Assembly (NCBI GenBank): GCA_964187785.1
Contig: OZ076409.1
Span: forward strand, 49,540,001 to 49,604,000
Source: Amphiscolops sp. MND2022
Taxonomy: Eukaryota
Direction of reading: 5' to 3'
Length of the DNA: 64,000 nt
Shown here: positions 32,062-64,000 of the stretch, in pieces
How the letters are laid out: each line of letters opens with the position of its first letter
Position numbering within the stretch: position 1 is the stretch's first letter
Notes under the pieces: model-generated
What the model was told of the DNA's origin: nothing
What the model saw: the letters and a program-made list of their open reading frames with translations, nothing else
Database searches by the model: none
Position numbers and translations under genes: made by a program

Positions 32062-32171
32062 TGTGTACGAAGTAGCACTTGGTGGGTCCGTACACGAAAC
32101 GGGCATAAGGTGGGACGTACACACTTTTCCCTTGGTGGGACATACACAAAATCTTTAACTTGGCTATTAAT

Positions 32172-32805
32172 AATACTTATTGACATGCATTGGTGGGACC
32201 TTAACACAAAATCTTTTTGGCGATTTTCAGCTATCAAGAATACTTATTGACATGCATTGGTGGGACCTTAACACAAAATATTTTCAGCGATTTTCAGCTA
32301 TCAAGAATACTTATTGACATGCATTGGTGGGACCTTAACACAAAATCTTTTCAGCGATTTTCAGCTATCAAGAATACTTATTGACATGCATTGGTGGGAC
32401 CTTAACACAAAATCTTTTCAGCGATTTTCAGCTATCAAGAATACTTATTGACATGCATTGGTGGGACCTTAACACAAAATCTTTTCAGCGATTTTCAGCT
32501 ATCAAGAAAACTTATTGACATGCATTGGTGGGACTTAAACACAAAATCTTTTTGGCGATTTTCAGCTATCAAGAATACTTTTTGACATGCATTGGTGGGA
32601 CCTTAACACAAAATCTTTTCAGCGATTTTCAGCTATCAAGAATACTTATTGACATGCATTGGTGGGACCTTAACACAAAATCTTTTCAGCGATTTTCAGC
32701 TATCAAGAATACTTATTGACATGCATTGGTGGGACCTTAACACAAAATCTTTTCAGCGATTTTCAGCTATCAAGAATACTTATTGACATGCATTGGTGGG
32801 ACCTC
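32172..32805 (+). repeat. 67-bp tandem repeat, ~9.5 copies, each containing TTGGTGGGAC
   Basis: Unit AATACTTATTGACATGCATTGGTGGGACCTTAACACAAAATCTTTTCAGCGATTTTCAGCTATCAAG. Confidence 0.95.
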
Positions 32806-33309
32806 AAAACATAATTCTGTTTTCCGAATGTTATTCTTTACGAATGAAACTCTGTCATTGGAGAGAGCAAAGACACAACGAAATTGGCTGGAAATTTATT
32901 GCAGTCATTATATTGACTTTAATTATTAATTGTTCACGCATTTAATATTTTTCAATCCCTGGTGACCAGTCTTTGGGCAATTTTCAAATGGACTCAAGGT
33001 ACTGATAATCATTGGTTTTAGTCAAAGTGACAGATAAAATTTTCTCGGTAACCCCATATTTTTTGTACACCTTCTGAATAATTTTCATATACTTTACTCT
33101 TGACAGTACACAGTTAGCTAGTAACAAGTTGACTGGTAAATTAAAAATCCAAGTCATTGCAAATCTTTTATTCAGCCCAAACAACGTTGTTACAACTCAA
33201 GTCAAGTATCGTAAAACCTGGATTTGTTTGAAAAGGTAAGTTTCATACTCGAGTGAAAGTTCATATGACTTTATCCTTCAATTATTGTTATCCTGTCACT
33301 GATAACTGA

Positions 33310-60966: not shown

Positions 60967-61038
60967 TTCGTGACACCCTACCATATGGTCCAAGGTAATT
61001 TAAAATTTGAAACCAAAATATGTTCTTTTCTGTTACTT

Positions 61039-61850
61039 CCCCCATAGTAAGCGCAAAAATTTTAATTCAATTTTTAAAGAGATGCGGTTACTAGATATAT
61101 ACCTACCTCATGAACCTCCATTACCTATAAAACTGGACCCTATCCGAACGCAGCAGCAAAACAACATTTTGTGGTAGTTATAATCAGATCCAGAAAAGAA
61201 ATTATAAAGAAACGCAATGTGGTTGAGCATGAAAAGGTGTTATATTGACCACGAAAAGCACGCCTATTTTGATTCTCAAGCTAGCTTGTTGCATAGCTGG
61301 AGAATTGAAGTTCATTGAACGACGGAAAGAAGCGCAATGAGATTGAGCATACGTGCAACGGGTCTGCCAAGTTGCCTTTGTTTATTTAATTTACATGTAC
61401 ATGTTGCTCCTAAAACTATAGCTTACATGTACAAGGTAATACAGTCCTGTGATAAAAGAATGGAACCACAAATTGGTAATAATATTTGGAACACCTAATT
61501 TTTCTGCCCATATCTCTGAAACTATTGATATTCAAGAAAAATGTCTCAAATAAAAGTTTCTCAAAATTTAACCTAGTTTATATTTGTTTTTTTGAAACTT
61601 CTATGGCAAATATTGGGGGAAACTAGCTCCCAATACCTCTCTATGTAAAAGTTGGTTTGTCAACCAAGTTTTGAACCTTTTCTGTTTATTCCCTACCAGT
61701 TAAGCGGACAAATGAAATTTTGATTGAATTAATAGTAACAAACAATCAAATTGCAGTATTTTATAACTCTAACTGCAACTGAAACTCATCGCTGATAGTG
61801 GTGGGGAATTAAAGTTTCCGCGCTTACTGTGCGGGGGGGGGAAGGGGGGT
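61039..61850. mobile_element. Second copy of the TIR element family seen at 44187-45940
   Basis: CCCCCATAGTAAGCGC left end; TTGCAGTATTTTATAACTCTAACTGCAACTGAAACTCATC...CTTACTGTGCGGGG right end. Confidence 0.6.
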
Positions 61851-64000
61851 ATGAACAAAAAAGATCCGAAGTTTTTAATTTTTGCCAAACAGTTTTGATT
61901 AGTTTTTGTTTATCTACCGGTTATTAGACGAGTGGAAACTAGACAAAAATCCAAGAAACTTTTGTTTTTAACATATTTCGGAAAATTCGACAGTTTTTGA
62001 GAAATTTGCAATCTCATTTGGTGTTCCCCCCACAACACGAAAGCACTTTTTGTTCTCTAATAAAACAATTTCACTAATAAGACAAAATTATCGATAATCA
62101 ATAAAAACGGCACGAACGGAGCTAAATAGTCGCTCAGGCAGGTTGGATGTTGACTTAATCCTTGGGCTAAAATAAATAATTTTTTTGTATTTATTGAAAA
62201 TTATGTATCAATAAACTATTTATTTTGCACCCCTGGGTACAGTTAGTTCTAAAATATCGCAACTCCTTTGCTTAAAATTTCTTAGAATTTTATCTAGTTT
62301 ACAAAAATGTTTTGGAATTTAAAAAGAGTATTTCATTTCAAAAAAGAACTAATTCCGTTTCTATCTTATACAAAAATCTCCCAAAAGCTATTCAAGTGAA
62401 AGTTTCTCAATTTTTCAATAAGAGTTGAGGCGTTGAGGCAACTAGCGTTGGTGGGACATAGACACCTTTTTACTAGGCTTTGGTGGGACATGCATTAGGT
62501 GGGACATAAAAGGTTCGCCATATGAATGAGTTAAAGTAAACAAATAAGAATTAAAAGCCGAATGGTTAGAGCAATAGATTCGGAGTCTGATGAAGAAGCT
62601 GAAAGTATCTATCGATGTCTTGAATTCTATTTCTGTAGCTTGTTAACCCTAACTGGACCAAGAAAATTCCGGATCCACCCAAAACTCTGGTGCTAAAATA
62701 TTGAGGCCTTTTTGAAATGATCTAGAACAAAATATTTTTGCAGTTTTGCGGGAGGTATAATACTCGGTCACTTGGATTTGTACGTAAACTCTAATATGCT
62801 ACGGCAACTTAATTCCAATTCGTTCAATCATATTTTGTATATCACTGTAGTTCAAATGTGATAGTATCACAAATATTTCTCAAGTTGAACAAAGCAGACT
62901 TAGTGGGACATAGACCGCCTTTTTACAAAGCCTTGGTGGGATGGCCACTTCTTTTGAAAAAAAATATAGGGCCATTGCTTAAAGAGGTGAGCCTTCTCGA
63001 TTCCAGTATGAATTTTTTTATGTAAGAAAAAGACGCTTCTTGTAAAAAGTCGGCGCCAAAAAAGGCGCATAGTGCTGAAAAAACCCTAAGGGCGGACACT
63101 TTAGTCACCCCTCTACTTCTGGAAGCATAAGAAAACTTTGTGGTTTAGTGCCAGAGATCGACAAACCTTTGCAAAACCATGGGACCCGAATAATCGAGTA
63201 CGAAATGACAGCCATGATAATTCGAGCATTGTTTCGATCAATTTGTTTTGGATATTTCCGTCATTTTCTCCCAAAGCCATTGTCTATCAAATTGCAACTG
63301 TTAAATGAACGTAAAAACCTATAGGGTTGTCTTTACAGCTCTTTTGACATTAGCAGCAAACAAGGCTACTAAATTTATCGCTATGTACCAAACTTTATCA
63401 GTTGAAGACAGGAATTGGAAAATATCAATTGCAATTTAATTGATATTCAAAAATGGCACAAAAAATTAATTGCACTTTTCGAAAAACTCCAATTCAATTG
63501 ATCAATTATTTGGCAATTAATTTCAACGAAAAACATTTAAAATTTCATTCATACTATCACAATCAAAAATGATGTTCGGAATAAGCTTTTTACGAAATTT
63601 GCAACAAATTAGCGCCTGGAATTACGTTAATATTTGCCAAGTATGCACTCAATTCATTTAGCTATGTTTGGCTATACAAATATGCCCGAGAAATAGGCTA
63701 AGAGAATTGCAATGTATTGGTTTTCATTGCCTACTTTCCAATCAATTCTTTGACGTCTTAAAATTACCCAATAAAAATATTTTCATTGAAAAATTGCAAT
63801 TTATTGTTCATCAATCAAAATTTTCCAATTCCTGGTTAAAGATTCTTTTCAAATTCTTTTTACCTGGGGGGGTGGAATAAATGACATGGTCTTAAAGTTG
63901 TTCACTTGATAAAAATGATTACGTACCAAACAACATACAAGGTTACCGAAAAAATCATTTCAATGAAAATAACTGCAATCAAGCAATAACAATAATTTAT

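Follow-up and report, generated by a model that had tools for sequence, protein, structure and literature searches.

A probable 51-kb tyrosine recombinase transposon with genes for SET, JmjC and RING proteins in the genome of Amphiscolops sp. MND2022

A question of identity

Does the right half of a 64,000-nucleotide stretch of the Amphiscolops sp. MND2022 genome (contig OZ076409.1, here C1:49540001-49604000; hereafter the window, numbered from its first nucleotide) hold a single mobile element that brings its own chromatin enzymes? An earlier note on this DNA had proposed for positions 32062 to 62945 one large element with a tyrosine recombinase (YR), a SET and a JmjC domain and a RING protein, which might remodel its own chromatin. 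The analysis described here indicates that the window very probably contains one copy of a recently amplified, YR-mobilised DNA transposon of about 51 kb, which is Crypton-like and belongs to an unnamed clade of SET-YR elements. The assembly comprises 1.07 Gb in 1,929 contigs (C1, C2 and so on in the following), and the GC content across the window ranges from 31 to 48%.

Extent and copies of the element

The element has a size of 50,842 bp. Its first base is window position 32062 (TGTGTACG...), and its last base is C1:49622903 (...CGTACACG; terminus ...GGTTTCGTACACG).

32062..64000, no strand: part of the element inside the window, colinear at 98.7-99.6% with the copy C9:3569918-3620854

The match of this C9 copy to the window begins at position 32052, crosses position 64000 and extends over the following 19 kb of C1. 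The segment 58000-62000 has 34 other full-length matches at 98-100%. Eight copies in which both ends were compared have lengths of 50.1-55.7 kb, identical termini and unrelated flanks. At the left end, 37 of 39 non-self matches start inside the (CA)n tract preceding TGTGTACGAAG; at the right end, all 39 other matches terminate at query positions 263-274. Based on these sharp ends and the colinear copies, the element proper extends from 32062 to 18,903 bp beyond the right edge of the window. The interval proposed earlier therefore starts at the exact first base of the left terminus and ends too early, since the homology between copies continues to C1:49622903. A right end at the extended coordinate 81379, taken from the comparison with the C9 copy, was rejected, because 40 other copies continue through this position. 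The C9 copy differs there merely by a tandem array of about 200 bp, and the true right end lies 1.5 kb further.

The copy numbers given here refer to scored candidate matches only and are hence lower bounds. The YR exon yielded at least 135 matches, 53 of them at ≥99% identity; among the latter, 47 are open and 30 are located on large contigs. For the JmjC exon at least 31 full-length matches at 98-100% were obtained (further matches are split at an acidic repeat), for the SET exon at least 150, and for the RING gene of the window (RING1) at least 64 at ≥97% identity, 62 of which are open. The SET-YR, JmjC and RING genes are all multicopy (about 50-64 young copies) with constant order and mutual offsets, and copies occur in either orientation on at least 11 large contigs. 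Overall, the element is present in dozens of copies with 97-100% identity. The claim that SET, JmjC and RING genes form a unit with the recombinase is thus well founded, as the same order and spacing recur on many chromosomes. Single-copy host orthologues of the JmjC and RING genes, located apart from the YR, were not encountered. Multiple loci with the same gene order and shared sharp boundaries, which the earlier note had listed as possible support, were found, and two empty-site comparisons are described below.

The contigs C226:1-114, C1720:1-264, C291 and C1870 begin or end exactly inside or at element termini. The 51-kb repeat has evidently fragmented the assembly, and haplotig duplicates may be among the copies. 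At C10:2898613-2899692 two left termini are separated by 950 bp, and at C9:59911661-59916067 two right termini by 4.1 kb. These paired termini could be duplicated ends or short non-autonomous derivatives.

Insertion sites

The left terminus of the copy in the window adjoins a dinucleotide run, which was detected with Tandem Repeats Finder (TRF).

32030..32061, no strand: (CA)16 run adjoining the left terminus, most likely derived from the target

CA units flank the left end in all eight copies compared, where their number varies from about 2.5 to more than 25 and their assignment to element or target is ambiguous; on the right side, CA(C/T) follows CGTACACG in seven of the eight. Among these copies no target-site duplication other than CA units was detected.

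The flanks of the element (31652-32041; C1:49622939-49623254) are a repeat, of which further copies were found at C7:68677974-68678362 (87%) and C2:53550105-53550411 (76%).

Two sites without the insertion were available for comparison. In the first, the left flank (90% identity) and the right flank (84%) are separated only by CCG(CA)5TAGAAC in the paralogue C7:68677500-68678100. In the second, the copy C7:54681414-54731840 interrupts a host satellite unit of about 72 bp exactly at CACACA. Intact units of this satellite read AAACTCACACATCTTGCG, and the filled unit reads AAACT(CA)5, element, CATCTTGCG, which corresponds to about three extra CA units and nothing else added. The empty sites carry (CA)5 and (CA)3, respectively. 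The element inserts into short (CA)n runs, with CA on both sides, and the satellite array (C7:54681000-54732400, each unit of about 72 bp with CACACA) shows that very short CA runs suffice as target. Such a pattern would be expected from strand exchange inside a shared CA core.

The same data bear on the idea that the 51-kb unit is a segmental duplication or macro-satellite, which was spread by host recombination and merely contains a smaller YR transposon. Two copies on C8 are about 100 kb apart, several are located within C9:3.3-3.9 Mb and many are on unplaced contigs, all of which would suit this idea. However, copies in both orientations were found on at least 11 large contigs, where their flanks are unrelated and their ends agree to the single base; according to the two empty-site comparisons, all 50.8 kb were inserted within CA runs, and the termini are inverted repeats with a recurrent motif. 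This explanation is close to refuted, and a transposon that moves as a whole is the interpretation followed here.

Termini and repeats

Both ends of the element are imperfect inverted repeats. If the left end is aligned to the reverse-complemented right end, both consist of (T/C)GTGTACGAA, 7 nt, TTGGTGGG and then two more GGTGGGAC within about 80 nt. The invariant ends read TGTGTACGAA... on the left and ...TTCGTACACG on the right.

32062..32141, + strand: left terminal inverted repeat (TGTGTACGAA, 7 nt, TTGGTGGG, two further GGTGGGAC), identical in eight of eight copies
32163..32815, + strand: subterminal 67-bp tandem array, 9.7 units, 96% matches (TRF), one TGGTGGGAC per unit
51593..52167, - strand: 233-bp tandem repeat, 2.5 units, motif in opposite orientation
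48290..48360, + strand: internal terminus-like module GTTTACGAAACCAGAGTTGGTGGGAC...TTGGTGGGAC in an intron of the JmjC gene, resembling the right terminus

The motif GGTGGGAC occurs three times per end, inverted between the ends, and ten extra times at the left end in the 67-bp array. Both this array and the motif that had been said to mark the entire interval were recovered: TGGTGGGAC is restricted to the element within the window, where all 24 occurrences lie between 32133 and 62489 (chance expectation 0.29; 24 occurrences were reached in 0 of 100 shuffles).

Further terminus-like modules are present at about 58300-58370 and 62430-62520 and at more places beyond the window. Arrays of 38 bp in the large intron of the JmjC gene (46261-46555 and 46961-47152) recur at C1:49610090-49610313 and 49620948-49621130. 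In addition, larger internal duplications connect 56.8-57.7 kb with 76.5-77.8 kb and 66.8-69.4 kb with 78.7-80.7 kb. These larger duplications show that the element grew partly via self-duplication.

The SET-YR gene

Two co-oriented spliced genes had been predicted on the minus strand, at 48995-41423 (zinc finger (ZF)-JmjC) and 40466-33310 (SET-YR). Both were recovered at these positions, and the distance between them is 956 bp, in agreement with the estimate of less than 1 kb. The SET-YR gene is composed as follows.

33310..40466, - strand: SET-YR gene, 5 exons, about 1,690 aa, frame kept throughout
40466-40073; 39634-~37626; ~37250-35773; 35386-34603; 33726-33310, - strand: exons of the SET-YR gene, canonical splice sites
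40068..40352, - strand: N-terminal part of the SET domain in exon 1; its continuation, EELRYDYGF, opens exon 2 (from 39634 downward)
40353..40355, - strand: premature TGA at codon 38, in this copy only (arginine codon in the C9 copy)
37753..39197, - strand: coding tandem repeat of 114 bp (38 aa) within exon 2 (TRF, translation of the open reading frame (ORF))
34603..35386, - strand: exon of the YR catalytic domain (AlphaFold2 (AF2) model and Foldseek)
33310..33594, - strand: C-terminal conserved domain, predicted three-helix bundle, possible helix-turn-helix

The junction of exons 2 and 3 is ambiguous among several in-frame pairs. The encoded protein consists of an N-terminal KMT5A-like SET domain, C2HC fingers, the YR catalytic domain and a C-terminal three-helix domain. 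The number of repeats in exon 2 varies between element copies, and the ORF is longer in the C9 copy. In the window copy the open frame of the SET exon has 94 aa, compared with 131-132 aa in 46 other matches at 100% identity.

The recombinase is not apparent from sequence comparisons. A Pfam scan recognised no recombinase in 34564-35436, a sequence search of the PDB with the YR exon gave one irrelevant match only, and a profile search of the PDB matched only XerH and XerA (E 0.2). A fold search was necessary, because these sequence and profile searches were insufficient. The AF2 model, calculated from 22 family members (predicted local distance difference test (pLDDT) 82), was most similar to XerH (Foldseek E 1.8e-4, prob 1.0). 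The top eight matches were XerH and XerA (E 1.8e-4 to 5e-3), followed by topoisomerase IB, Tn1549 Int, lambda Int, FLP and Cre. Over the 22 aligned sequences R75, K127, H222, H227 and Y231 are invariant, and R196 is present in at least 90%. The modelled fold and these residues confirmed that the exon belongs to the tyrosine recombinase superfamily (Xer/Cre-like fold, R-K-R-H-H-Y), as the earlier note had assumed.

The C-terminal domain is conserved among homologues of the family, and the Atlas gives Myb_Rap1 as a lead (0.76). Its former designation as Myb-like finds weak support in this lead and in the three-helix model (pLDDT 71.5). Pfam gave no match for this domain, and its resemblance to homeodomains (root-mean-square deviation 1.5-1.9 Å) is non-significant (Foldseek E 2-10).

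The SET domain was identified by its match to PF00856 (E 7e-7, 30 bits at a cut-off of 22.4 bits). A search of the PDB with the SET exon of the window alone gave no match. The exon aligns with the SET domain of the fish protein P0067 (E 7e-11), whose SET domain best matches KMT5A/SETD8 (E 3e-25). Active SET enzymes usually have NH at the cofactor-binding motif. In comparison to KMT5A (SETD8/PR-Set7), this position reads ND in the element and likewise in P0067, and the ELRYDYG segment is present with its tyrosine retained.

These features leave some room for a different function, in which SET serves as a module for chromatin tethering or target choice that binds the H4 tail or the nucleosome, and not as an anti-silencing enzyme. 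The integrases of chromoviruses, which carry a chromodomain, provide a comparison. SET is fused in cis to the YR here and in 10 of 23 long homologues, and the change from NH to ND that is common to the fish homologue suggests altered or lost catalysis. In contrast, the observed preference is one for a DNA sequence, the CA run, and not obviously for a chromatin state, and the tyrosine of the C-terminal ELRYDYG is retained. A tethering function is rather unlikely, and a SET enzyme acting on chromatin is retained in the following as part of the proposed mechanism.

The JmjC and RING genes and the remaining coding capacity

The second gene and the smaller ORFs are located further right.

41423..48995, - strand: ZF-JmjC gene, 659 aa, exons 48995-48911; 48608-48432; 43401-42141; 41879-41423
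56889..57098, + strand: RING1, 69 aa (ORF 56829-57095, Met at 56889), Pfam RING families
C1:49616556-49616765, outside the window: RING2, paralogue of RING1 (Pfam, paralogue alignment)
52430-52867 (+ strand, 145 aa); 53233-53631 (- strand); 59838-60200 (+ strand): 'orphan' ORFs, no Pfam match, no sign of being genes

The four exons of the ZF-JmjC gene have GT..AG borders and give an uninterrupted ORF for three C2HC fingers, an acidic repeat and the JmjC domain. Pfam detected JmjC/Cupin_8 in 41423-41917 and 42062-43438 and C2H2/C2HC fingers in 48397-48624 and 48816-49010. The best PDB matches of the JmjC exons were KDM7A, PHF8, KDM2A and PHF2 (E 1.5e-11 to 1e-4), so that both chromatin domains named earlier, SET (PF00856) and a JmjC domain of the KDM7A/PHF8/KDM2A type, are reflected in Pfam and PDB matches. 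In JmjC enzymes HxD...H forms the Fe(II) triad, and a lysine binds 2-oxoglutarate; the protein of the element retains HQD, WIHFVH and GRK. Proteins of the KDM7/PHF8 subfamily possess an N-terminal PHD finger that reads H3K4me3. Pfam found no PHD finger in the protein of the element, which differs from KDM7/PHF8 in having three C2HC fingers, of C2H2/C2HC-like type at the N terminus, and the acidic repeat in its place. The same unusual C2HC finger type occurs in the SET-YR protein.

The RING ORF mentioned in the earlier note was recovered as a probable RING finger gene (56829-57095, + strand), which matches zf-C3HC4_3 just below the cut-off (E 1.7e-5, 24.9 bits; cut-off 27 bits). RING2 reaches 27.0 bits with the same family (cut-off 27) and 22.7 bits with zf-C3HC4 (cut-off 21). 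A strict C3HC4 regular expression had no match in the RING ORFs, because ligands 3-4 are spaced H-x-H. In a protein-guided alignment RING1 and RING2 show 77% nucleotide identity, all ligands are kept, and the ratio of non-synonymous to synonymous substitutions (dN/dS) is 0.54. Diverged intact RING ORFs were found at 56-66% identity.

Thirteen relatives of the JmjC protein were found, all unnamed, and two of them (P0163/P0164, about 45% identity) share the layout of fingers, acidic repeat and JmjC domain. In a subfamily of the genome with synonymous divergence (dS) of 0.11-0.15, JmjC adjoins SET and the frames are open; in this subfamily SET has a dN/dS of 0.29, and the two JmjC exons have values of 0.59 and 0.42.

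It is possible, albeit somewhat unlikely, that the element is mobile as described and that JmjC and RING, perhaps also SET, are captured host-type passengers with no role in transposition or anti-silencing, whose effect would be on the host or nil. The relatives of the JmjC protein are confined to the 13 unnamed records and are absent from the named fish SET-YR loci, whose models have no JmjC domain; the JmjC gene is hence a lineage-restricted addition. The dN/dS values of the main JmjC exon (0.59-0.75) and of the RING pair (0.54) also fit passengers, as does the fact that most of the 51 kb has no recognisable function. On the other hand, the JmjC ORF of about 446 codons is open, with its iron-binding residues kept, in subfamilies that are about 8-13% diverged at synonymous sites. 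In addition, the C2HC-finger/acidic-repeat/JmjC layout is retained elsewhere by clusters of 18 and 4 members that show about 45% identity, the RING ORFs persist at 56-66% identity, and the finger type is shared with the SET-YR protein. The reading pursued below, in which these proteins contribute to the life of the transposon, is consistent with these observations.

Across the 50.8 kb, no reverse transcriptase (RT), RNase H, DDE, polymerase or capsid domain was found by Pfam in ORFs of at least 55-60 aa, and apart from SET-YR, JmjC and RING all ORFs of this size had no Pfam match. The orphan ORFs could therefore not be substantiated as genes: neither a family match nor other evidence was obtained, and the ORF at 52430-52867 is shortened to 116 aa in the C9 copy. 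The gene content also bears on the idea that the locus is a Polinton-like element, or the endogenous form of a large DNA virus, with YR-mediated integration. A size of 51 kb would suit such an origin, and YR integrases are reported from some large DNA viruses of eukaryotes (PMC10871703). However, neither capsid, polymerase and packaging ATPase nor another viral hallmark was present in the ORFs of the above size; moreover, the genes are intron-rich with host-type splice sites, and about 33 kb consist of repeat-rich non-coding DNA. A viral origin is extremely improbable.

Relationship to known mobile elements

A search with the YR exon gave 2,410 relatives at E ≤0.001 among 1.84 billion representatives. 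Of 23 long relatives scanned, 10 possess an N-terminal SET domain, and 2 show weak Phage_integrase matches. When ten SET-YR relatives were looked up, nine were named, namely eight 'uncharacterized' teleost proteins and one unnamed beetle protein. In the Atlas the YR family is recorded in Chordata and Arthropoda with no Pfam label. Judged by these sequences, SET-YR fusions are widespread yet unnamed in teleosts and arthropods. The proteins of teleosts and the beetle (XP_077422404, P0067; XP_048861681, P0086; XP_052465879, P0148) show the same order of SET, long linker, YR and C-terminal PW...W..K as the element, with 30-37% identity in the YR over about 215-250 aa. In contrast to the element, they are annotated as nameless host genes, and their models have no JmjC domain.

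Cryptons are divided into the groups CryptonF, S, A and I (Goodwin 2003; Kojima & Jurka 2011, PMC3212892). In the latter paper, animal Cryptons are described as elements whose only protein is a YR without additional domains and whose ends have no terminal repeats, and the absence of terminal inverted or long direct repeats is part of the definition of a Crypton (PMC3212892, PMC13465315). The element shares with Cryptons that a YR is the sole recombination enzyme and no RT is present, that there is no classical target-site duplication, and that a circular intermediate is presumed; the CA units on both sides might be the short direct repeats at which crossover takes place. Unlike Cryptons, it spans 51 kb, its ends are imperfect terminal inverted repeats (TIRs) in which motifs recur, SET and a helical domain at the C terminus are joined to the YR, and there are two further types of gene. 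Neither DUF3504 (CryptonA; E ≤0.1) nor DUF3435 (Starship captains) matched the YR exon of the window or 21 other family members, which separates the element from CryptonA. The affinity to Cryptons suggested earlier thus holds for a YR-only mechanism and not for the CryptonA/DUF3504 type or the lack of TIRs. In Repbase, a group 'CryptonV' is listed as a class label (PMC5753468), and SET-YR elements might be filed there.

With the Starships of Pezizomycotina fungi (PMC10104507) the element has in common that a YR mobilises a giant unit together with its accessory genes, that the boundaries are sharp and that empty sites attest to the insertion; asymmetric TIRs are present in some Starships (PMC13465315). 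In contrast to Starships, the host is of animal type and not a fungus, and the recombinase does not match DUF3435. The captain is the first gene at the 5' end of a Starship, whereas the YR gene, although the outermost gene on the left side, is located 1.2 kb from the left end and transcribed toward that terminus. Starships carry dozens of host-beneficial genes and occur as one or few copies per genome, whereas here the cargo comprises genes of three types and non-coding repeats of about 33 kb, and copies number in the dozens. Retrotransposons of the DIRS, Ngaro, PAT and VIPER types share the YR. They differ from the element in possessing genes for RT and RNase H, and their terminal repeats are split or inverted.

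No published YR transposon with a SET or JmjC gene was found in titles and abstracts of the literature on Cryptons, tyrosine recombinases and giant transposons. The available portion of PMC3212892 contains no mention of JmjC, methyltransferase or SET domain, and that of a 2019 review of giant eukaryotic transposons (PMC6431247) no mention of Cryptons or histone enzymes.

The genes for JmjC and SET further differ from those of host KDM7/PHF8 and KMT5A in being multicopy and located inside a transposon. KMT5A writes H4K20me1, and PHF8 erases this mark. By analogy, the element may carry writer and eraser of the same mark, if the activities of KMT5A and PHF8 carry over; this is a lead for further studies.

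Points against the proposed interpretation

Several points weigh against a recently amplified, YR-mobilised transposon. The copy counts may be inflated, because 23 of the 53 youngest YR copies are on small unplaced contigs, which may be haplotigs. Both empty-site comparisons are paralogous (repeat flank, satellite unit) and not allelic, and the left (CA)n could be the element's own instead of the target's. The models of the SET-YR and ZF-JmjC genes were derived from splice consensus and reading frame alone. The copy in the window is non-autonomous and cannot make the recombinase, because of the stop at codon 38, and the methyltransferase activity of SET is uncertain, because ND replaces the usual NH. 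Values of dN/dS of 0.4-0.75 show moderate constraint only and include decay after insertion. Binding of GGTGGGAC by proteins of the element is a presumed link, drawn from the sequence. Finally, the approximately 33 kb that are repeat-rich and have no recognisable gene leave the large size of the element unexplained.

Proposed mechanism and implications

The following proposal builds on what was observed, namely the unit with its ends, target and copy number, the fold and residues of the recombinase and the domain identities. The SET-YR protein would bind the clusters of GGTGGGAC, pair both ends of the element and excise it as a circle. The circle junction, CGTACACG-(CA)n-TGTGTACG, would resemble a lox/FRT-like site with inverted binding arms around a CA core, and the circle would integrate through strand exchange inside genomic CA runs. 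It is most likely that SET, JmjC and RING act on chromatin at the element or at the target. This is the least-supported step; it might counter silencing, or set and erase marks of the H4K20me1/H3K9me2 type around recombination. For the recombinase, the copy in the window would have to rely on intact copies at other loci.

Remodelling of its own chromatin as an escape from silencing, as envisaged in the earlier note, is inferred from the domain content. An even broader proposal is that the element represents a Starship-like class of giant YR transposons in animals with their own chromatin toolkit, comprising a KMT5A-like H4K20 methyltransferase fused to the YR, a PHF8/KDM7-like demethylase, for which the same C2HC fingers would provide the targeting, and small RING E3 ligases. 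Marks would be written and erased on the element's own chromatin or on CA-repeat targets, which would keep it expressed and mobile. We regard this proposal as rather unlikely; if true, the toolkit would explain the recent spread of about 60 copies of a 51-kb element without silencing.

Giant cargo-carrying YR transposons have so far been a fungal story, represented by the Starships, and the present locus is part of an animal-type genome. It offers a concrete case of a transposon that, judged by domain identity, encodes histone-modifying enzymes of opposing activities, and the question whether animal transposons actively counteract chromatin silencing becomes testable. Due to the definable ends, the simple CA target and the intact copies, recombination can be tested directly with natural sequences. 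Furthermore, many SET-YR gene models that are annotated as unnamed 'host' genes in fish and insects receive a likely identity.

Other features of the window

A (CTA)34 microsatellite is located inside the element at 53134-53235, and its counterpart in the C9 copy is far longer. To the left of the element, segments of about 140-160 bp within 11641-12045 and 15724-15876 match the element interior at 91-93% (C9 copy; about 66 kb in extended coordinates). A small, unrelated repeat, also nested within the element, is the probable cause.

Judged from the translation only, long ORFs at 519-5821 (+ strand) resemble a gag-pol LTR retrotransposon that is unrelated to the element; they show a CCHC gag, protease-like and integrase-like segments and an RT-like YVDD motif. 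At 17356-19998 (+ strand) an open frame of 880 aa with low complexity, rich in Ser, Pro and Glu, was observed, which may be a large host exon.

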